Shown here: in pieces, positions 30,362 to 54,328 of the stretch
How positions within the stretch are numbered: the stretch's first letter is position 1
How the letters are laid out: each line of letters starts with the position of its first letter
NCBI GenBank assembly: GCA_944390005.1
Contig: CALXOJ010000003.1
Location: 175,329 to 239,328 of the forward strand
DNA: 64,000 bases
Source: an uncultured Spirochaetota bacterium
GTDB lineage: Bacteria > Spirochaetota > Spirochaetia > JAFGXN01
Reading direction: 5' to 3'
Translations under genes and position numbers: made by a program
The notes under the pieces: generated by a model
The model's input: the letters and a program-made list of their open reading frames with translations, nothing else
What the model was told of the DNA's origin: nothing
The model's database searches: none

Positions 30362-32452
30362 TCAGGATTCCTCTTCGTCGGCACTCATGCGCGAACGGCC
30401 TTCTTCGATAACCGTTTCAGCCTGTTTGCCGGAAATTGGACTGTAATGGGAAAAGTCGATTTCGTAAGAGCCGGTTCCCGACGTCAGCGCCTTCAGTTCG
30501 ATGGCGTAACGCTGAATTTCGCTTTGAGGCACTTCAGCGTCGATTTGGGTAATTCCGCCGCCGATTGATTCCTGCCCCTGAATGCGGGCCCGTTTGGACG
30601 ATAGATTGGAGAGGATGTCGCCGATGTACGCTTCATCGGCAAAGACGTGCATCAGCATAATCGGCTCGAGCATCACCGCAGCGCCGTTTTTCATCGCTTC
30701 GCGCAGACAACCGCGCGCGGCCAGCTTAAACGCCATTTCGGAAGAATCGACCGGATGCTCTTTTCCGTCGTAAATTGTTGCCTTCAAATCGACAATCGGA
30801 TAGCCGGCCAAAAATCCCCGTTCCATCGCCTCCAGAAGTCCCTTTTCGATTCCGGGCATATAATTTTTTCCGACGGCGCCGCCTTTGATTTCGTTGACGA
30901 ATTCGAAATTCATTCCCCGTTCCAGCGGTTCGAATCGCATGACAACGCGGGCATACTGACCGTGGCCGCCGGACTGCTTTTTGTGCGTGTATTCGGCTTC
31001 GCACGGCTTGGTAATCGCTTCCCGATAGGCGATTTTCGGAATTTTGGTTTCATAAGCGATTTTGTTTTTATCGAGAGCGTTTTCCAAAATCATATTGAGG
31101 TGCATTTCGTCCATTGCGGAAATCACCGTCTCCTTCGTTTCGGCATTGTAACGCATGGTGAAGGTTAAATCCTGCTGTCCCGCTTTTTGTAGGAATTCGT
31201 TGAGTTTGTCTTCGTCTTTTTTATCTTTTGCGGTGACGGCAACCGAATAGGTCGGATGCGGCAGCCGAAGATTGTGGTAGCGGTACGGAAAACCGGCTTC
31301 AGCCAGCGTGTGATTGGTGGCAATTCCGTCGATTTTCGACAGCGCGCCGATAGCGCCTGCTGAAAGCAGATCCATCTCAATCAGCTTTTTCCCCTGTACG
31401 TTGTAAAGTTTACCGACTTTGATTTTAGCACCGGTATTGAGATCGATCAGCTCCGCATCGGGATGGATGACACCGCTCATCATTTTGATGTAGGAGAGCT
31501 TGCCGGCGAATTTATCGAATTTGGTTTTGATGACCATCAGCGACACCGGAGCGTCGGAGGAAATGGTCAGATCAACTTTTTGTCCTTCGCCGTCGATGCC
31601 TTTTTCACCGACCGCATCGGGAGAAGGTGCGACAATTTCCAAAAAATTCAGGAACGAAGCGATTCCATTATTCAGGACGGCGCTTCCGCACATCACCGGC
31701 ACTACGCGTGTGCTGCGGATGCCGAGTTTCAGTCCCTTGCGGATGTCGTCTTCGCTTAGCGTGCCTTCGTTGAAATATTTTTCAATCAAATCATCGGCGC
31801 CTTCGGCCGCCAATTCGATCATCTGTTCGCGCATTTCGGCGACCAAATCCTTCATTTCTTCGGGAACGGGTGAAGCGACGTCTTTTTTGCTTGGATCGTG
31901 CACTAAGTACGCTTTTTCTTCTATTAAATTAACGATTCCTTTAAAATCCTTTCCGGAGCCGATAGGAATGGTTACCGGAACGAAGTTTTTTTTGAATTTG
32001 GTTCGCAGATCTTCGATGACGGCAAAGTAGTCTGCGTTATCGATGTCCATTTTATTGATGAAAACAGCGCGCGGTTTTTCTCTTTGATTGAGCCGCCGCC
32101 ACAACTTCAGTGTTTCAATCTGGACGCCGCTTTTGGCGTCGATTACGACAAGAGCCGATTCGCATGCTCTTAAACCGACAATCACTTCGCCGACAAAACC
32201 GGCGGCTCCCGGCGTATCGAGAAAATTCATTTTATGCCGGTTCCACATTAAATGTGTAAACGACGTGTAAATCGAAAAGCGATGGTTGATCTCTTCTTCG
32301 GTGAAATCACTCATCGTTTTGCCGCTTTCCACCGATTCGGCCTTTGCGATGACGTCAGCGTTGAACAGCATCTGTTCCAAAAGAGTCGTCTTTCCCGTTC
32401 CGCCGTGGCCGACAATGGCGACATTTCTCAATTCTTTGGTGGCAAATCCCAT
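30362..32452 (-). CDS. elongation factor G paralog (EF-G2-type translational GTPase)
   Basis: G1 motif AIVGHGGTGKTTL, then DTPG, NKMD, and EF-G domains II-V. The N-terminal motif resembles EF-G2 rather than canonical FusA. Start re-placed at ATG 32450-32452 (MGFATKELRNV). Confidence 0.85.
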   Translation of the reverse strand: MGFATKELRNVAIVGHGGTGKTTLLEQMLFNADVIAKAESVESGKTMSDFTEEEINHRFSIYTSFTHLMWNRHKMNFLDTPGAAGFVGEVIVGLRACESALVVIDAKSGVQIETLKLWRRLNQREKPRAVFINKMDIDNADYFAVIEDLRTKFKKNFVPVTIPIGSGKDFKGIVNLIEEKAYLVHDPSKKDVASPVPEEMKDLVAEMREQMIELAAEGADDLIEKYFNEGTLSEDDIRKGLKLGIRSTRVVPVMCGSAVLNNGIASFLNFLEIVAPSPDAVGEKGIDGEGQKVDLTISSDAPVSLMVIKTKFDKFAGKLSYIKMMSGVIHPDAELIDLNTGAKIKVGKLYNVQGKKLIEMDLLSAGAIGALSKIDGIATNHTLAEAGFPYRYHNLRLPHPTYSVAVTAKDKKDEDKLNEFLQKAGQQDLTFTMRYNAETKETVISAMDEMHLNMILENALDKNKIAYETKIPKIAYREAITKPCEAEYTHKKQSGGHGQYARVVMRFEPLERGMNFEFVNEIKGGAVGKNYMPGIEKGLLEAMERGFLAGYPIVDLKATIYDGKEHPVDSSEMAFKLAARGCLREAMKNGAAVMLEPIMLMHVFADEAYIGDILSNLSSKRARIQGQESIGGGITQIDAEVPQSEIQRYAIELKALTSGTGSYEIDFSHYSPISGKQAETVIEEGRSRMSADEEES

Positions 32453-32611
32453 ATTCCGCTCCTTTGCCGCATCGGTCTGAGCGCCCGCTGCAGCTCCACT
32501 ATTTATTTTCAGTCCGACGGAAGCAAAAGTCAAGCGATTTTTTAAAGTCGAAATCTTGATTTTTATCGGAAATTTATATATCTTTAACAAGAAGGAAGAG
32601 TAAAAGATGTG

Positions 32612-32685
32612 CAACTCAACTCAACTCAACTCAACTCAACTCAACTCAACTCAACTCAACTCAACTCAACTCAACTCAACTCAAC
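32612..32685. repeat. pentanucleotide microsatellite (CAACT)14 + CAAC in divergent intergenic region
   Basis: A perfect run of CAACT units spans 32612-32681, plus a partial unit. The listed ORF 32607-32828 (NSTQLNSTQL...) is just its translation. Confidence 0.95.
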
Positions 32686-32840
32686 ATTTTTGTATAGTTC
32701 GATTTACGGACGAAACCGTCGGCGGCAAAATCGAAGACAGTTGCGGCGCGGTATTCGGATTACATAGCGTCGTTTCTGCTCCGTTCCGTGATTGCTGTTC
32801 GGCGATGACAATCTTGAAAAGATGTTAAGAAGGAGGCGTT

Positions 32841-33248
32841 ATGCTGCGGATTTTGCTTTTGTGTTCAATTGTGGTTCTTTCTTTCATCGGTTGTGAAGAA
32901 GTAAATGTCGGGGTGAAGGCAACGCCGGAAACCGCAACTGTTTCCATAGGGGAAGAGGTGACCGTTAAGGCGGAAATCGACAATCCGATGGGACTCAACG
33001 TTTCAGTGTATCGCTGGCGTGTCACTGTTGACGGAGAGAAAAGTGTAACGGTTGTGTTGGATGGAAAAATCGATTTGCAGGATTACGGGATTGATTATCG
33101 ATTTAATGACGATCAAACCGAATTGACAGTCGCCCACTCTCAAACCGGAATTTACCGCTATGAAGTGGAAATTGCCGTTAACGGTTTTGCCCGCAATTAC
33201 GGCATTGCTGACTCTGAAGTGACGGTTGTCGGCGAACAAATCGGTTGA
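32841..33248 (+). CDS. small hypothetical lipoprotein
   Basis: Signal MLRILLLCSIVVLSFIGC with a lipobox. 135 aa with beta-rich composition. RBS AAGGAGG before the ATG. Confidence 0.5.
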   Translation: MLRILLLCSIVVLSFIGCEEVNVGVKATPETATVSIGEEVTVKAEIDNPMGLNVSVYRWRVTVDGEKSVTVVLDGKIDLQDYGIDYRFNDDQTELTVAHSQTGIYRYEVEIAVNGFARNYGIADSEVTVVGEQIG

Positions 33249-33668
33249 TTTGGTTTTACCGACAGTGGTAATTCATACTCTCTTCCGCGCGCAGTTGATT
33301 CGGAGTTAGGCGGCTCTTCTGCGAATTCTTTAGAACGCGCCGTGCAGTAAGCCGCCGGGTTTGTTGCGTTCAGTCAATTTTTTACTGTTTAAAAGAGCTT
33401 ATTGCGGTTCTCGGGGTAGTTGCGTCCGAAATCCTTTGCCGGAAGCCGATCCTGCAAGGCGTGCGCCCCTTTTTCGGATCCGCCGCCTTCAACGCAGTCT
33501 CCTGTGCCTTTTGAACCGCCCACCGCCTCATTTGTTCTATTCTTTTGCTGCCCAAAAACGCATAAAAAAAAGAAAAAGTTTTTTCAAAAAAACCTCTTTT
33601 TTGACATTAATCATGATAGAGCGTATGTAAAAACTTCGCAGCAAAAGCCCCAAATCCGCGGAGGTGTT

Positions 33669-34451
33669 ATGAAAAACTACAGCGAACTGACCCTAACCGA
33701 CGACTACCTGTTCAGCCAAGTAATGAAAGACGAAAGCGTGTGCAAGCCGTTTCTGGAAATGCTTCTGGAAATCAAAATAGCCAAAATTGAGTATTTGCAG
33801 GAACAGAAAGAGTTGAACCTCTTCCCCGACTCCAAAGGCGTAAGGCTGGACGTCTACCTTGAAGGAGACGGAAAGGTGTACAACATCGAAATGCAGGCAG
33901 GACGCGATCAATACCTCATCTGCCGAATGCGCTACTACCGGGCGGCGATCGACATCGACATGATGATGAGAGGCAGCGGGTACCGGGAACTGAAACCCGT
34001 GTATATCATATTTCTCTGCCGATTTGACCCGATAGGGAAGGGATTGGCGAGGTACACGCTGAGGAAATACTGTGAGGAGACGGGAGAAAAAATCGATGAC
34101 GGACAGACGGAAATCGTGTATAATGTGAATGCGTATGAGAGAGCGGGGCGCGGGAAGGTACGGGAGCTTCTGAGGTATTTAGCGACCGGAGAGGCGCAGG
34201 AACCGGAGGTGAAGGAGTTTGCTAAGAAGATAGCCCGTTTTAAAGAGACGCAGCAGTGGAGAAAAGGAAACATGAAATACGAGTTAGATTTACAAGACGC
34301 CCGCATTGAAGGAAAGGAAGAGGGACGCAGTGAGACACTGCTGCTGATTATTGAGAATGGAGTGAAGCAAGGGTTAACGCCCGAGCAGACGGCGGCGCTG
34401 ACGGGGTTAACGGTTGACGAGGTGGAAGCACTGCGGAAGCGGATTCGGTAA
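33669..34451 (+). CDS. Rpn-family PD-(D/E)XK nuclease / 'putative transposase' (TIGR01784-like), copy 1
   Basis: The D...E.Q core is VRLDVYLEGDGKVYNIEMQ. The C-terminal low-complexity E/G repeat tail (EGKEEGRSE) and helix ...GLTPEQTAALTGLTVDEVEAL are typical of this family. The first 214 aa are identical to copy 2. Confidence 0.75.
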   Translation: MKNYSELTLTDDYLFSQVMKDESVCKPFLEMLLEIKIAKIEYLQEQKELNLFPDSKGVRLDVYLEGDGKVYNIEMQAGRDQYLICRMRYYRAAIDIDMMMRGSGYRELKPVYIIFLCRFDPIGKGLARYTLRKYCEETGEKIDDGQTEIVYNVNAYERAGRGKVRELLRYLATGEAQEPEVKEFAKKIARFKETQQWRKGNMKYELDLQDARIEGKEEGRSETLLLIIENGVKQGLTPEQTAALTGLTVDEVEALRKRIR

Positions 34452-34577
34452 AAACGATCGATTTTCAAATAAATCCGTTCTCGAAGCTCAAACCCGCCTT
34501 TACCCGCGCCCGGTTTTCCAAAGGCGTTTCGCTGCCCTAAACGGGAACGAAAGTTGCCTCAAAAGACACAAAACACC

Positions 34578-34860
34578 GCGTTAAAGACGACAGATTCTCA
34601 AACGCAACCCACCGCAGTCGAAGCTTAAAATATTGCGTTAAAATCCACTGATTCGCCAAAGAAACTCACAGCTATCGAAGTTTACCCACTACGTTAAAAT
34701 CCACCGATTCGCCAAAGAAACCCGCCGCAGCCGAAGCTCAAAATATTGCGTTAAAGGCCTCTGATTCGCCAAAGACATCAAACATTGCGAAGTCAAAAAA
34801 TTCCCTTTAAAGGCGGCAGATTCTCAAATAAAACCACAGCGGTATTAAATAAAGACGCAA
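34578..34860. repeat. tandem array of ~5 degenerate 56-57-bp repeats downstream of Rpn copy 1
   Basis: Units start at 34578, 34635, 34691, 34748 and 34804. The consensus is roughly GCGTTAAAATCCACCGATTCGCCAAAGAAACCCACCGCAGCCGAAGCTCAAAATATT. The same family lies at 39601-39815. Confidence 0.7.
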
Positions 34861-35741
34861 ACACGATTGTCTTGGAGTCGAGCGCTGTGACGGAGGGCTC
34901 AAACACGTATACGGCAACTTTATCCGCGTTCGGATACACGAATTTACAGTTGAGTTGGGCGAATGTAGAGATCGACAAAACCGCCCCCTTACAAATTCTT
35001 GGTGTTTCGTTTGATAGGACAGCGGATGGAACCTCTGTCACCGCTAACTGGACCTTGCCGAATGGACATGACATTGCCAAAGTCGTTTTCACTGAATTGG
35101 TCGGCAATGGAAATACTTCTTCAGACAGCGTAAATGCGTCGCACGTTACAGACAAAGAAGGCGGTATCGTTGCAGAATTTTCTATAACAGGGGCAAATGA
35201 AACCAGCGGTGTTATTGATGATTTAACAGCTGACGCCCCCTATTGGTTCATGGTTCACACTGAAGACGCGGCGGGCAACAAAAGCGTGCGCGCAAGGGAT
35301 AGCGTCGCCGGAACTGTTGCGCCGGACGACAACGGCTTCATGGTGCGGTTCACTTCATCTCAACTGGATGAAGAAGCGCCTTACATAACGAATGCAACCG
35401 GTTATTTTGACGGGACGCATTACATTTTTTCATGGGATAATCCGAACGGATACGACGTTAAGATTGCCAAAAAAGGTGCAAATTTGGCACTTGGAGAGAG
35501 CGACGGCAGCTCAGAAGGCATCGTTGAATGGATCACGGATGAAACCGACAGCAACAAGAAAATCGGCGCAAAAGTCAAACTGGGTGAGGTGACAAATTCC
35601 TACAATTTCCGTTTGATGGTTTACGCGACGGATTCAGATACGGCTTCAACCAATACACCTGATACAACCAATGACTTTCAAGCGTTCTGTCTTTTCTATT
35701 TCCCGGAAAATCAGGCCAATGAGGTTACGCCTGCAAATTAA
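34785..35741 (+). pseudogene. 5'-truncated fragment of a fibronectin-type-III-like surface protein gene
   Basis: The ORF starts at a TTG inside the repeat array, and its first ~25 codons are translated repeat sequence. There is no signal peptide. The downstream part shows two FN3-like modules (e.g. DKTAPLQILGVSFDRTADGTSVTANWTLPNGHD) and ends at a strong terminator. Confidence 0.35.
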
Positions 35742-35746
35742 CCATT

Positions 35747-35773
35747 GGCGTCCCTGCGGGGACGCTTTTTTTT
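35747..35773 (+). terminator. Rho-independent terminator
   Basis: Stem-loop GGCGTCCC-TGCG-GGGACGC followed by T8. Confidence 0.7.
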
Positions 35774-35810
35774 CTTTTGTCCCTCTTTTCAAAAAAAAAT
35801 AAAAAAAAAG

Positions 35811-35839
35811 TTGACAAATAGAGGGGGGGGGGGACAATA
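35811..35839 (+). promoter_or_regulatory. putative promoter of the sulfatase gene with the G11 tract in the spacer
   Basis: TTGACA at 35811-35816. A 17-nt spacer (35817-35833) ends in the G11 run. A weak -10-like ACAATA lies at 35834-35839. A9-T-A9 AT-tracts sit upstream (35781-35799). Confidence 0.4.
35823..35833. repeat. homopolymeric G11 tract
   Basis: Eleven consecutive G at 35823-35833, the only long poly-G in the window. Confidence 0.95.
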
Positions 35840-35876
35840 ATAGTAAATAGAAAAAAATTTTAAAAGAGGTATAATT

Positions 35877-38231
35877 ATGAAGAAGCGTAAATCAGCACTT
35901 TCTTTATTATCGGTAACAGCGGCGTTATTGGCGGGCGGCTGCCCCGAAACGCCGCCGATTGAGTCGCAGACGCCTGGAGGGGATACGGAAAATCCCGGAG
36001 GCGGCGGTACAGTGACGCCGTCCGGCCGCATGAATATCATTTTGTTCATGGTTGACGACATGGGGCTTAACGACTCGTCGGTTCAGTTTTTGGAGGGCGG
36101 TTCGAAATTGAACGAATATTACCACACTCCGAATATGGAGCGGTTGGCAGAAAAGGGGGTCCGCTTTACAAGCGCTTACGCCGCGCCCGTATCCTCGCCG
36201 ACGCGCATTAGTTTGATGACAGGTTCCAACGCAGCGCGCCACCGCGTGACCAACTGGACACTGAATCTCAATGACAACACTGATGCCTCGTTTCAAAATA
36301 ATTTGGCAGGACAGCCGTGGAACTGGAACGGTATTTCTCCCGATGTTAACGGTGACGTAACCTCAAACAACATTTATGAAACCACAACATTCCCACAGAT
36401 TTTACAAAAAAACGGGTACCGCACCATCCACCTCGGAAAGGCGCACTGGGGGGCTATCAGCACAAAGGCGGCTGAACCGCTGAACCTCGGTTTTGACGTC
36501 AATATCGGCGGGGCGGCGCCGGGAGGTCCGGATAACTATGCCCTTACTAATGCTTCACAGGAGTACACCGGTTTTCAAATCCCATTTCCGCGTCTCAATG
36601 AATACGCGACAGCCGAAACAAATTACCACATTACCGACGCGATTACCAACGCCGCGCGGTCGGAGATTGACCGCGCCGTCGAGGACGGAACGCCGTTTTA
36701 TATGTACATGTCGCACTACGCCGTCCATTCGCCGTATACTCAGCCAGATGAGCGCTTTTACAAATTCTACGAGGGTAAATCAACAGCTGACCAGACGATT
36801 TACGGAACGAGGAACAAGAACTACGGAACGCTGGTCACCGGTATGGATAAATCCCTCGGCGAGCTGATGGATTACTTGGAAGAAAAAGGGATTGCCGATA
36901 AAACCATCTTGATTTTTATGGCTGACAACGGCGGACACCATGATAACAAAAATACGCCGCTTAGAGGCTCAAAAGGATCGATGTGGGAAGGCGGTATTCA
37001 TGAGCCGATGATGGTTTACTGGCCGGGCGTGACCGATGCTTATGCCGGTCAAAAGAATGATTCGCCTGTCATAATTGAAGATTTTTATCCGACAATTTTG
37101 GAAATGGCAGGCGTCGCTCCCGGAAGTTACGACAGCGAACTGAAGCAGACTGTCGACGGCAAGAGCTTTGTATCTGCGTTAAAAGGCAATAAGCCCATCA
37201 ATACCGATCGCGCACTCTATTTTCATTATCCGAACAAGTGGGGGGAGGCAACTACTCTGAATAGTGATCCCGTCGGTTTTCCGTCAAGCGCCATCATCAA
37301 AGACGGATGGAAGTACATTTATTTCTACGGCACCGGTAAAGAATATCTCTTCAATCTGACAGCAGACGAAATTGAAGAGACAAATTTGGCAGAGACTAAT
37401 GCCGAGAAAAAAGCAGAATTGGCGAAAGATTTGTCCGATTACCTGAAATCGGTCGACGCAACCATGGTTTATGACAGCACTTCGGGAGTGATTACTTATC
37501 CGGACGGCACAACGGATAATGCATTTACATACAAAGTGGGAGACGACAATGTCTTTTACATCGATATCAACGATCAAAACGGATCGGTAGAGAATGAGCC
37601 GTTAGCCGGCCGCGGTGCACACACTGGTGCGGTAACAGAAGAAGACAACTTCACGATTTCTTTTGAAGATGGAACAGAAGTGACCGGTTCGATAGCGTGG
37701 ACCGGCACTGTAAAACCCAACGGTGACAACGGAAGGTTTGCTTCTGTGGAAGAAGCCAATGCGTTCGGCAGCCTGTTCTCCGGTTTCACAAAAGAAGAAA
37801 CTTTAAGCAATGCTCTGCTTCCTGTTTGGGCGGATGCGGTAACGCTGGAGACGGATAGTCCTTCGGCTGTCATTCTATTGGAAGGCCTGCCTGAAGGAAC
37901 ATACGAAATCGGTTTGCTGAGTGTGCGCAATAACAGCTACTACGGAACGAACAACGGCAGTCTGATTAAAAACGCTGTTTACGACATAACCACCGGAACC
38001 GTAAGCGAGGCACAAGCTTTCGGAACCAAGAAAAACGTTGCCGACAGCAATTTGACAGATAAAGCGGTGCTGTCTGAAACCGATAAGTTTACCGTGAATC
38101 AAGACGCCGGTACGGACTCCGAAGTGTGGGGTTTCCGTTTCAGCTGGACAGTGACTCCCGAAAATGAAAGGATTGAAATCACTGTTTCCGGAACCTGCTC
38201 CTTGAATGCGTTGAGAGTCGAAAAACGTTGA
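35877..38231 (+). CDS. Ser-type sulfatase lipoprotein with ~230-aa C-terminal module of unknown function
   Basis: Lipoprotein signal MKKRKSALSLLSVTAALLAGGC. The sulfatase signature S-S-P-T-R-ISLM-TG has Ser at the formylglycine position. The metal-binding DDMG is near the N-terminus. A C-terminal extension from ~aa 553 is homologous to the C-terminus of the 62082-63764 protein. Confidence 0.85.
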   Translation: MKKRKSALSLLSVTAALLAGGCPETPPIESQTPGGDTENPGGGGTVTPSGRMNIILFMVDDMGLNDSSVQFLEGGSKLNEYYHTPNMERLAEKGVRFTSAYAAPVSSPTRISLMTGSNAARHRVTNWTLNLNDNTDASFQNNLAGQPWNWNGISPDVNGDVTSNNIYETTTFPQILQKNGYRTIHLGKAHWGAISTKAAEPLNLGFDVNIGGAAPGGPDNYALTNASQEYTGFQIPFPRLNEYATAETNYHITDAITNAARSEIDRAVEDGTPFYMYMSHYAVHSPYTQPDERFYKFYEGKSTADQTIYGTRNKNYGTLVTGMDKSLGELMDYLEEKGIADKTILIFMADNGGHHDNKNTPLRGSKGSMWEGGIHEPMMVYWPGVTDAYAGQKNDSPVIIEDFYPTILEMAGVAPGSYDSELKQTVDGKSFVSALKGNKPINTDRALYFHYPNKWGEATTLNSDPVGFPSSAIIKDGWKYIYFYGTGKEYLFNLTADEIEETNLAETNAEKKAELAKDLSDYLKSVDATMVYDSTSGVITYPDGTTDNAFTYKVGDDNVFYIDINDQNGSVENEPLAGRGAHTGAVTEEDNFTISFEDGTEVTGSIAWTGTVKPNGDNGRFASVEEANAFGSLFSGFTKEETLSNALLPVWADAVTLETDSPSAVILLEGLPEGTYEIGLLSVRNNSYYGTNNGSLIKNAVYDITTGTVSEAQAFGTKKNVADSNLTDKAVLSETDKFTVNQDAGTDSEVWGFRFSWTVTPENERIEITVSGTCSLNALRVEKR

Positions 38232-38252
38232 CAGCAGCCGATTGGCTCTTTT

Positions 38253-38277
38253 GGCGCCCCTTTTGGGGCGCTTTTTT
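38253..38277 (+). terminator. Rho-independent terminator of sulfatase gene
   Basis: GGCGCCCC-TTTT-GGGGCGC followed by T6. Confidence 0.65.
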
Positions 38278-38643
38278 GTATTTCGGGCGCGTGCGCGCCG
38301 CAAGCGGCGCGCACCGGGCTTTCCGCTGCAATTCGCAGCCTCCCGCGCCTTTACCGAGGCAAAGCTGCCGCTTTGCCCTGCGCCATCTCTCCGTCGGCAG
38401 CTCATTTCCGCTCCAATCCCTCGCGCCTTCGAAAGCGTGCGCCCCTTTTTCGAATCCGCCGCCTCCAACGCAGTATCCTGTGCCTTTTGAGTCTCATACA
38501 GCCTCATTTGTTCTATTCTTTTGCTGCCCAAAAACGCATAAAAAAAAGAAAAAGTTTTTCAAAAAAACCTCTTTTTTGGCATTAATCATGATAGAGCGTG
38601 TGTAAAAACTTCGCAGCAAAAGCCCCAAATCCGCGGAGGTGTT

Positions 38644-39474
38644 ATGAAAAACTACAGCGAACTGACCCTAACCGACGACTACCTGTTCAGCCAAGTAATG
38701 AAAGACGAAAGCGTGTGCAAGCCGTTTCTGGAAATGCTTCTGGAAATCAAAATAGCCAAAATTGAGTATTTGCAGGAACAGAAAGAGTTGAACCTCTTCC
38801 CCGACTCCAAAGGCGTAAGGCTGGACGTCTACCTTGAAGGAGACGGAAAGGTGTACAACATCGAAATGCAGGCAGGACGCGATCAATACCTCATCTGCCG
38901 AATGCGCTACTACCGGGCGGCGATCGACATCGACATGATGATGAGAGGCAGCGGGTACCGGGAACTGAAACCCGTGTATATCATATTTCTCTGCCGATTT
39001 GACCCGATAGGGAAGGGATTGGCGAGGTACACGCTGAGGAAATACTGTGAGGAGACGGGAGAAAAAATCGATGACGGACAGACGGAAATCGTGTATAATG
39101 TGAATGCGTATGAGAGAGCGGGGCGCGGGAAGGTACGGGAGCTTCTGAGGTATTTAGCGACCGGAGAGGCGCAGGAACCGGAGGTGAAGGAGTTTGCTAA
39201 GAAGATAGCCCGCTTTAAAGAGACGCAGCAGTGGAGGAAAGGAAACATGAAATACGAATTAGACTTACAAGACGCCCGTGCGGAAGGCATTGAAATCGGA
39301 CGAAGCGAAGGGCTGGAAGAAGGATTGGAGAAAGGCCATTCCGAGGGACGTTATGAAATGGCTGTCCTTATCACAGAAAATATGATGAAGCAAGGATTAA
39401 CGCCCGAACAGACGGCGGCGCTGACGGGGTTAACGGTTGACGAGGTGGAAGCACTGCGGAGGCGGATGCGGTAA
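38644..39474 (+). CDS. Rpn-family PD-(D/E)XK nuclease / 'putative transposase' (TIGR01784-like), copy 2
   Basis: Identical to copy 1 over the first 214 aa. It has a longer C-terminal E/G-repeat tract (AEGIEIGRSEGLEEGLEKGHSEGRYEMAVLITENMM), 16 aa more than copy 1. Confidence 0.75.
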   Translation: MKNYSELTLTDDYLFSQVMKDESVCKPFLEMLLEIKIAKIEYLQEQKELNLFPDSKGVRLDVYLEGDGKVYNIEMQAGRDQYLICRMRYYRAAIDIDMMMRGSGYRELKPVYIIFLCRFDPIGKGLARYTLRKYCEETGEKIDDGQTEIVYNVNAYERAGRGKVRELLRYLATGEAQEPEVKEFAKKIARFKETQQWRKGNMKYELDLQDARAEGIEIGRSEGLEEGLEKGHSEGRYEMAVLITENMMKQGLTPEQTAALTGLTVDEVEALRRRMR

Positions 39475-39600
39475 AAACGATCGATTTTCAAATAAATCCG
39501 CTCTCGAAGCTCAAACCCGCCTTTACCCGCACCTGATTTTCCGAAGGCGTTTCGTTACCCTAAACGGGAACGAAAGTTGCCTTAAAAGACCCAAAACACC

Positions 39601-39815
39601 GCGTTAAAAGCGACAGATTCTCAAATAAAGCCACAGTTGTCGAAGCTCAAAATATTGCGTTAAAATCCACCGATTCGCCAAAGAAAACCACAGCTGTCGA
39701 AGTTTAACCACTGCGTTAAAAGCGCCCGATTCTCCAAAGAGCCCCACAGCAGTCGAAGCTCAAAATACTGCGTTAAAATCCACCGATTCGCCAAAGAAAC
39801 CCACCGCAGCCGAAG
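39601..39815. repeat. tandem array of ~4 56-57-bp repeats downstream of Rpn copy 2
   Basis: Units start at 39601, 39657, 39713 and 39770. Same family as 34578-34860. Confidence 0.7.
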
Positions 39816-54171: not shown

Positions 54172-54328
54172 AAAATTATGAACGACGACAGAAGCAAGCA
54201 AGCAGTATCTTTATGTAACAAATCAGAAAAGTCCTCATTCGGTAACAAAGGGCGGTGTTTTCCCCAAGGGGAAATGCCGTCTTTTTTTATATTCCCACAA
54301 ATTTATTAAAAAGATGGAGGAAAGAACG

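Follow-up and report, generated by a model that had tools for sequence, protein, structure and literature searches.

The window analysed here is a 64-kb stretch of DNA from an uncultured Spirochaetota bacterium. It contains a CAACT microsatellite at 32612–32685 (plus strand), which is composed of 14 perfect units and a partial one, (CAACT)14 + CAAC. Tandem Repeats Finder returned this interval with a period of 5, 14.8 copies, 100% matches, 0 indels and a length of 74 bp, and direct reading gave the same result. The tract is intergenic. The ATG of a minus-strand EF-G-family gene is 159 bp from it, and that of a plus-strand lipoprotein gene is 155 bp from it; the strand that reads CAACT is the sense strand for the lipoprotein. 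A perfect CAACT run between divergent genes had been proposed in a previous reading of the letters alone, and the run, its coordinates, its distances to both genes and the divergent arrangement were all borne out.

The uniqueness of the tract was examined with a 20-nt probe, (CAACT)4, allowing at most 2 mismatches. Only the tract was matched (12 overlapping matches, versus 0.00 expected from 100 shuffles). No further perfect repeats with units of 2–9 nt and longer than 12 nt were found within the 64-kb window, nor was a second copy of the intergenic flanks, so that the CAACT tract is the sole long microsatellite of the window. Two features of contingency loci are visible in this one sequence, namely a long and pure tandem repeat with a unit of 1–9 nt (14.8 perfect units over 74 bp), and an intergenic position on the 5′ side of a gene, where such repeats lie in the coding region, the promoter or the leader.

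The EF-G-family gene (30362–32452, minus strand; identified with Pfam and NCBIfam) is regarded here as a bystander. All five EF-G domains were present in the profile search, and the protein passed the NCBIfam EF-G subfamily model NF009381 (804 bits versus a cut-off of 583). The sequence-only reading called this gene EF-G2-type. It is indeed an EF-G paralog, but the EF-G2 label did not hold, as the scores fell below both curated EF-G2 equivalog models (525 versus 890 for NF009377, and 567 versus 1000 for NF058620). The nearest named homologues were EF-G proteins of Spirochaetota with 53–57% identity. Longer EF-G ORFs of 723 or 750 aa, which were called in some assemblies, were rejected as artefacts of a frame that is open up to the repeat, and the profile match begins at the ATG at 32452.

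A consensus scan placed a promoter of the EF-G paralog, TTGACT-17-GAAAAT, at 32505–32533 on the minus strand. It is a neighbour of the repeat system and not part of it. Three groups of relatives carry the EF-G gene next to different upstream genes: L142–149 (84% nucleotide identity in the EF-G gene, with an HD-GYP response regulator upstream), L163, which is the nearest (about 91%, with another EF-G-like gene upstream), and L164 (74%, with PGI upstream). Neither the repeat nor the lipoprotein gene was present in any of them. The promoter core TCGCTTGACTTTTG...CTGAAAATAAA (also written CGCTTGACTTTT ... CTGAAAATAAA) was kept in L142–149 and L163 while the surrounding sequence diverged, and L164 still keeps the TTGACT of the −35 element. 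Coming from the EF-G gene, the similarity between L163 and the window extends as far as 32543, some 10 bp past the EF-G −35 in the upstream direction. The minus-strand −35/−10 pair noticed earlier is thus a genuine candidate, matched by the scan and kept as a core in two relatives and as TTGACT in the third. As a side observation, the next gene upstream of the EF-G paralog in L163 (L163:1–300) ends in an EF-G-type C-terminus (...LRSLTQGRGTFGMEFSHYRKRP), and therefore two EF-G-family genes stand in tandem in that lineage.

It had been suggested that the tract tunes the EF-G paralog through promoter geometry, by moving an activator or UP-like site upstream of the EF-G promoter in half-turn steps of 5 bp. 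The tract does start 79 bp upstream of the −35 of this conserved promoter, and PMC2791445 describes a comparable case, in which TAAA repeats upstream of the core promoter of Neisseria meningitidis nadA change the spacing of distal elements (NadR) and so regulate the gene from a distance. A repeat upstream of a core promoter is the common point, and nadA is the model behind the earlier idea. In contrast to nadA, which needs regulator operators in the flanks, operators were not detectable here, and the EF-G promoter is kept where the repeat is missing. The idea was not sustained by the comparison of relatives, because the −35 or the whole core is kept in three lineages whose upstream DNA is unrelated and repeat-free, with L163 losing similarity just above the −35. 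A conserved translation GTPase is also not the usual type of gene under stochastic control. Judged from these alignments, the EF-G promoter does not appear to depend on the tract, and we consider control of the EF-G paralog by the repeat very improbable. Since the EF-G −35 or core is kept next to different neighbours and without the repeat, the repeat belongs to the module of the lipoprotein.

The lipoprotein gene (32841–33248, plus strand), which is the likely target of the repeat, encodes an orphan predicted lipoprotein of 135 aa. The ORF is preceded by a ribosome-binding site, GAAGGAGG, at 32829–32836, which was located by direct reading and frame analysis, and a TAA at 32826–32828 stands immediately before this site. 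The N-terminus is of the lipoprotein type, MLRILLLCSIVVLSFIGC, with a predicted signal peptide and Cys18. Pfam and NCBIfam gave no matches to the protein, and a search of 5.8 billion proteins returned homologues from the same species only. The 15 variants were 97–99% identical, and with such conservation among strains diversifying selection is not evident. The AlphaFold model (pLDDT 65, with 75–88 in the beta core) has an all-beta, Ig-like domain after the signal peptide and found weak Ig-fold matches in a PDB library. With medium confidence, the model is read as an Ig-like beta sandwich.

The lipoprotein gene is part of a lineage-specific module of about 0.9 kb (32544–33461, plus strand). Its left edge is the point at which the similarity to L163 stops (32543). 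Its right edge is a synteny edge: same-species synteny is lost at 33461–33465, and the genes beyond differ by strain. The module contains an A/T-rich promoter region, the repeat, a 155-nt leader, the lipoprotein gene and some 215 nt beyond its 3′ end. From these edges and from the restriction of the lipoprotein to one species, it follows that the tract goes with the lipoprotein and that the EF-G promoter is independent; to judge by these comparisons, the tract appears to have arrived with the lipoprotein module.

Directly downstream of the lipoprotein gene, the region 33456–39815 resembles a recombination hot spot. Two PDDEXK_2/Rpn transposase-like genes (33663–34451 and 38644–39474) are each followed by a tandem array with units of 56/57/113 bp (34578–34835 and 39592–39815), and together they bracket a 318-aa ORF and a sulfatase gene. 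At this place other strains carry a DUF362/4Fe-4S gene or HSP90 instead. An element of about 150 bp occurs twice, at 38281–38438 and at 57801–57955. Two tandem paralogous genes with List_Bact_rpt repeats (54314–55666 and 56001–57563, within 54192–57563) were also observed in the window. They gave weak partial matches of the GldK and TIGR02171 type, and their 5′ ends are identical, with the 13-bp unit AAAGAAAAATGCA at 54321 and 56008. An (AAGC)3 stretch lies about 120 nt upstream of each, at 54192 and 55879.

The leader of the lipoprotein gene was then inspected for promoters. By eye, a candidate promoter TTGATT-17-TATCTT (8/12) was recognised at 32556–32584 on the plus strand, back to back with the EF-G promoter. 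It scores below the threshold of the consensus scan. We regard it as the most plausible candidate for the lipoprotein promoter, the argument for it being the analogy with six other spirochaete loci that are described below. If this promoter is used, the transcript would start near 32591, the repeat would begin about 20 nt into it, and the leader would be about 250 nt long.

An alternative −10-like element, TATAGT, was seen by eye at 32693–32698 (plus strand), directly after the repeat. If the lipoprotein promoter used this element, the tract would be a variable DNA spacer that separates it from a regulator site or from the A/T-rich region to the left of the tract, as with the TAAA repeats of nadA or the GAA repeats of Mycoplasma gallisepticum vlhA. 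Five of the six bases of TATAGT agree with the −10 consensus, the element directly adjoins the tract, the sequence to the left of the tract is A/T-rich, and the module argument fits such a spacing switch equally well. On the other hand, TATAGT has no acceptable −35, because this would fall inside the CAACT repeats, and the site was not reported by the scan. One assembly (L018) has lost most of TATAGT while its lipoprotein gene is intact, and in the six other spirochaete loci the sigma-70-like sites are upstream and not downstream of the tract. This spacing switch is therefore highly doubtful.

A switch in which the repeat forms the spacer between −35 and −10 is known from the TA repeats of hif and the poly-G tracts of porA and of Treponema pallidum tp0126. 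It was rejected for this locus, as the tract is 74 bp long versus a spacer of 16–18 bp, and no promoter straddles it.

The tract is also traversed by an upstream ORF. At 14 units this ORF encodes 73 aa (32607–32828, plus strand; from the ORF list and a frame simulation), and an AAGGAAG (32592–32598), a good ribosome-binding site, lies 8 nt before its ATG at 32607. Each change by one unit shifts the reading frame because the unit has 5 nt. In the simulation, the ORF stopped 12, 73 or 143 nt before the lipoprotein ATG, depending on the unit number modulo 3. With 8, 11, 14 or 17 units it ended at the TAA at 32826–32828, directly before the ribosome-binding site of the lipoprotein gene. Gene callers had annotated the upstream ORF in the in-frame alleles L002, L013, L015, L019 and L161.

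The layout recalls the pentanucleotide CTCTT repeats of Neisseria opa, which reportedly act as a translational frame switch. In both cases a pentanucleotide repeat that is stop-free in all frames starts just after an ATG and shifts the frame with each unit. The opa repeat lies in the signal-peptide coding region of the regulated gene itself; unlike this, the repeat ORF here is separated from the lipoprotein by the in-frame TAA at 32826–32828, and the frame shift is therefore confined to the upstream ORF. An opa-type in-frame switch was thus rejected, since the repeat ORF stops at this TAA and fuses with the lipoprotein in no frame. Coupling of the lipoprotein to the upstream ORF is an attractive possibility. 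However, the other spirochaete CAACT loci inspected did not share the upstream ORF, and an open stretch of 47 codons in one of the three frames would be no great surprise as a chance event (about 0.1 per frame).

RNA folding was calculated for the leader at 0–27 units. The repeat was predicted to be 80–90% unpaired, and the minimum free energy was −60.0 kcal/mol, identical at 5–27 units. As the energy is independent of the unit number, a structural consequence of length is not predicted. The adhesin genes hmw1A and hmw2A of Haemophilus influenzae have ATCTTTC repeats in the leader whose length sets expression, and these repeats pair with a G-rich region into a long 5′-UTR hairpin that is cut by RNase III (PMC12721329). 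Both repeats are intergenic, and transcription of the leader, which is established for hmw, is proposed for CAACT. In contrast to hmw, the CAACT repeat is predicted to be largely unpaired and its energy does not change with length, so that the defining RNA structure is absent; a hairpin of the hmw1A type was rejected on these grounds.

No Rfam family was found in 31500–35000 at E values up to 1, and the leaders of five other repeat-bearing spirochaete loci gave tRNAs and chance matches alone. The window leader showed weak similarity to the repeat-bearing leader of L108 (E about 0.03 in a tiny search space), and the motif common to the two was not extendable. A search of the JGI metagenomes for TAACAAGAAGKAAGAG-N2-30-(CAACT)3 gave no match in that collection, which does not include the locus of this species.

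To see the tract in natural samples, more than 30 independent metagenome contigs were gathered by exact-protein look-up of the lipoprotein or EF-G. The tract was at the same site in all of these more than 30 assemblies, with near-identical flanks. Its alleles had 9.8, 11.8, 14.8, 15.8, 16.8, 19.8 and about 27 or more units; interrupted forms were also present, and two alleles had deletions at the junctions. In L014, GTAAAAGATGTGCA was missing on the left side of the tract and the ATG of the upstream ORF was gone with it. In L018, ATTTTTGTATA was missing on the right side, at the cost of the TATAGT discussed above. The lipoprotein ORF was intact in both.

The exact unit counts are unreliable, because the lengths from short reads are partly artefactual: several are probably k-mer-limited, and others are N-gapped or taken from contigs that end in the tract. 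Alleles of 59 bp (11.8 units) and 79 bp (15.8 units) recurred within single pipelines, and these are the smallest in-phase lengths that reach k = 55 and k = 77, respectively. A gap of 100 N exactly inside the tract was seen in L005, L010, L011, L017, L020, L150, L151, L154, L155, L157 and L160, and such gaps were found in many ONAT22 scaffolds; contigs of L006, L021, L156, L158 and L162 start or end in the tract. The repeat thus systematically degrades assembly and annotation at this locus. The breaks and gaps are compatible with high-frequency variation within populations but are not proof of it.

One pipeline (ERZ16268*) gave six different tract lengths in seven samples, which disfavours a pure k-mer artefact. 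Together with the coexistence of 49-bp alleles and alleles of at least 74 bp, these six lengths make real variation between samples the best reading of the data. The length polymorphism that slippage predicts was therefore borne out across natural samples (9.8 to at least 27 units with near-identical flanks). A third feature of contingency loci, a unit number that differs between strains, is present with the same range, in which the exact counts are unreliable.

The occurrence of CAACT tracts in other genomes was surveyed by scanning 185,579 genomes, one per species, for (CAACT)6, which gave at least 120 loci from many phyla. Among the matches listed, the longest tract had up to 65 units (L060), and 13 were spirochaete loci with 6–19 units (L024, L026, L045, L047, L080, L083, L092, L102, L103, L108, L115, L127 and L140), 10 of the 13 from Treponema or Treponemataceae. 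No similarity to the window sequence was found for any of the 13.

Six of these loci share one layout, in which a sigma-70-like site is followed by the tract 0–71 nt downstream, a leader of 73–126 nt, a ribosome-binding site and the gene. The genes encode a Big_2 lipoprotein (L080, site score 9/12), an orphan lipoprotein (L083, 12/12), an Fn3/DUF4959 lipoprotein (L102, 9/12), a CHB_HEX_C/Flg_new lipoprotein (L108, 11/12), a BspA-type LRR protein (L103, 10/12) and a YidC-like protein (L024, 11/12). The leaders of L080 and L083 both contain the segment GCGGKCTTTTTGTATTT at equal distance from the tract. Four loci have a second layout, with a ribosome-binding site, an ATG, a few codons and then the tract in frame with the gene, which is an acyltransferase-3 gene in L047 and L092 and an HTH_11 regulator in L026 and L127; the L092 acyltransferase and the L026 HTH gene are thus laid out like opa. 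At L045, L115 and L140 the sequence ends at the tract.

All 10 readable spirochaete loci agree with the window in having the downstream gene on the CAACT strand. By sequence logic, (CAACT)n is stop-free in every frame and offers no ATG, GTG or TTG start, and its complement (AGTTG)n has a TGA in all three frames, which accounts for the gene being on the CAACT strand. If the EF-G paralog were the target of the tract, the repeat would read AGTTG, unlike all of the spirochaete loci inspected. A crude ORF survey of the 120 loci listed gave about 50 same-strand versus about 8 divergent-only cases, and no ORF was found on the complementary AGTTG strand among these 120 loci. A general orientation rule was nevertheless rejected, as in several loci of Lactobacillaceae and Faecalicatena a strong promoter-like site points into the other strand, and the rule is therefore limited to the spirochaete loci that were inspected one by one. 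The site in question, TTGACA-16-nATAAT, lies 4–5 nt from the tract in five Limosilactobacillus, Ligilactobacillus and Faecalicatena loci (L027, L036, L114, L128 and L138), and it reads into the AGTTG strand, opposite to the spirochaete orientation.

The recurrence of the CAACT unit before spirochaete surface genes is a modest new lead. Descriptions of CAACT tracts, or of switching by pentanucleotide repeats in Treponema, were not found in the literature, which was covered incompletely, and this is weak evidence of novelty. A partly similar case is that of the TAACTGA heptamer arrays of Beggiatoaceae and cyanobacteria, which occur in many 5′ intergenic regions with a proposed post-transcriptional role (PMC4679880). 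Both are direct repeats of a short unit that recur in 5′ intergenic regions. The heptamers differ in the unit, in the organisms and in their hundreds of arrays per genome, and their function is likewise unproven.

Whether the tract has any function was also weighed. It might be a neutral microsatellite that originated by chance in a non-essential intergenic spacer, is prone to slippage and affects neither gene. RNA folding without length-dependent structure and a lipoprotein that is not diversifying are in line with neutrality. Moreover, tracts of at least six CAACT units are present in more than 120 genomes of many phyla, and the unit may therefore simply be prone to expansion. Against this stand the persistence of a long (at least 9.8 units) and mostly pure tract in all of the more than 30 assemblies, and the recurrence of CAACT in the same orientation at the 5′ ends of spirochaete genes for surface proteins and surface-modifying enzymes. 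To our knowledge, long perfect repeats are also rare in bacterial genomes outside contingency loci. We consider a neutral tract unlikely.

The explanation we favour, with moderate confidence, is that the tract is a slippage-prone contingency element (phase- or level-variable) which acts for the orphan lipoprotein in its transcribed leader, and not for the EF-G paralog. Slipped-strand mispairing at replication would add or remove CAACT units. Lying between the candidate promoter at 32556–32584 and the start codon at 32841, the tract would appear in the RNA as a (CAACU)n stretch without structure, close to the 5′ end of the leader. The unit number would alter the length of the leader, and it would alter the frame of the upstream ORF, whose stop would come 12 nt before the lipoprotein ATG in one of the three frames. 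Leader length or upstream-ORF frame may then set the amount of lipoprotein, giving cells that differ in their surface make-up. That the tract is transcribed and that its length changes expression is what we infer from this arrangement. The possible mechanisms are separable by their dependence on the unit number, which would be monotonic for leader length, of period 3 for the upstream ORF and of period 2 for helical phase.

The closest precedent for such a leader element is uspA2 of Moraxella catarrhalis. According to the summary in PMC4679880 (citing Attia and Hansen 2006), AGAT repeats in its 5′ untranslated region vary from 6 to 23 copies by strain, and expression peaks at 18. In both systems a multi-unit repeat stands before a start codon, that of a surface-protein gene in uspA2 and that of a predicted lipoprotein gene here; in uspA2, as that text has it, the repeat lies after the transcription start, as would be the case here. 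Unlike the CAACT tract, uspA2 has a tetranucleotide repeat in a gammaproteobacterium, and the same text gives its transcription and its effect on expression as demonstrated, which for CAACT are proposed.

A wider form of this explanation would make (CAACU)n leaders a recurrent RNA-level device in spirochaetes, and possibly in other phyla, in which the unit number sets the expression of surface lipoproteins, with a three-state upstream-ORF switch at the present locus. If so, a 5′ stretch that is stop-free, start-free and unstructured would either couple and uncouple lipoprotein translation or serve as a length-graded standby platform for ribosomes. We regard this wider form as decidedly unlikely.

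A second repeat was noticed 3 kb from the CAACT module. A G11 homopolymer (35823–35833, in the region 35811–35876) occupies the spacer between a perfect TTGACA (35811–35816) and an AATAAT, 44 nt before the sulfatase gene (ATG at 35877). L001 has G12 at this place and L006 has G13, and G9 would give the optimal spacer of 17 nt. By analogy with tp0126 and tpr of T. pallidum, the G11–13 tract is a second candidate phase-variable promoter. As a second variable repeat (G11/G12/G13) nearby, it makes repeat-based switching in this organism plausible.

In T. pallidum, poly-G tracts in the promoters of tpr, tp0126 and tprL vary in length within isolates (PMC7864442). The CAACT tract resembles them in being a repeat at a spirochaete gene, whose product is an outer-membrane or surface protein there and a putative surface protein here, with phase variation that is known there and proposed here. 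It differs in that the T. pallidum homopolymers are in or next to the −35/−10 spacer, which a 74-bp tract cannot be; closer to them is the G11–13 tract upstream of the sulfatase gene.

Surface-protein switching driven by repeats is well studied in a few pathogens, and in spirochaetes mainly for the poly-G tracts of T. pallidum. The present locus also carries a warning, because assemblies of such genomes break or are mis-sized exactly at the repeat sites. The window locus, the 13 other spirochaete loci and the variable poly-G tract 3 kb away suggest that uncultured spirochaetes have such switches for lipoproteins and surface-modifying enzymes. If this is confirmed, the repeats would make variable surface genes easy to recognise by sequence in metagenome-assembled genomes.
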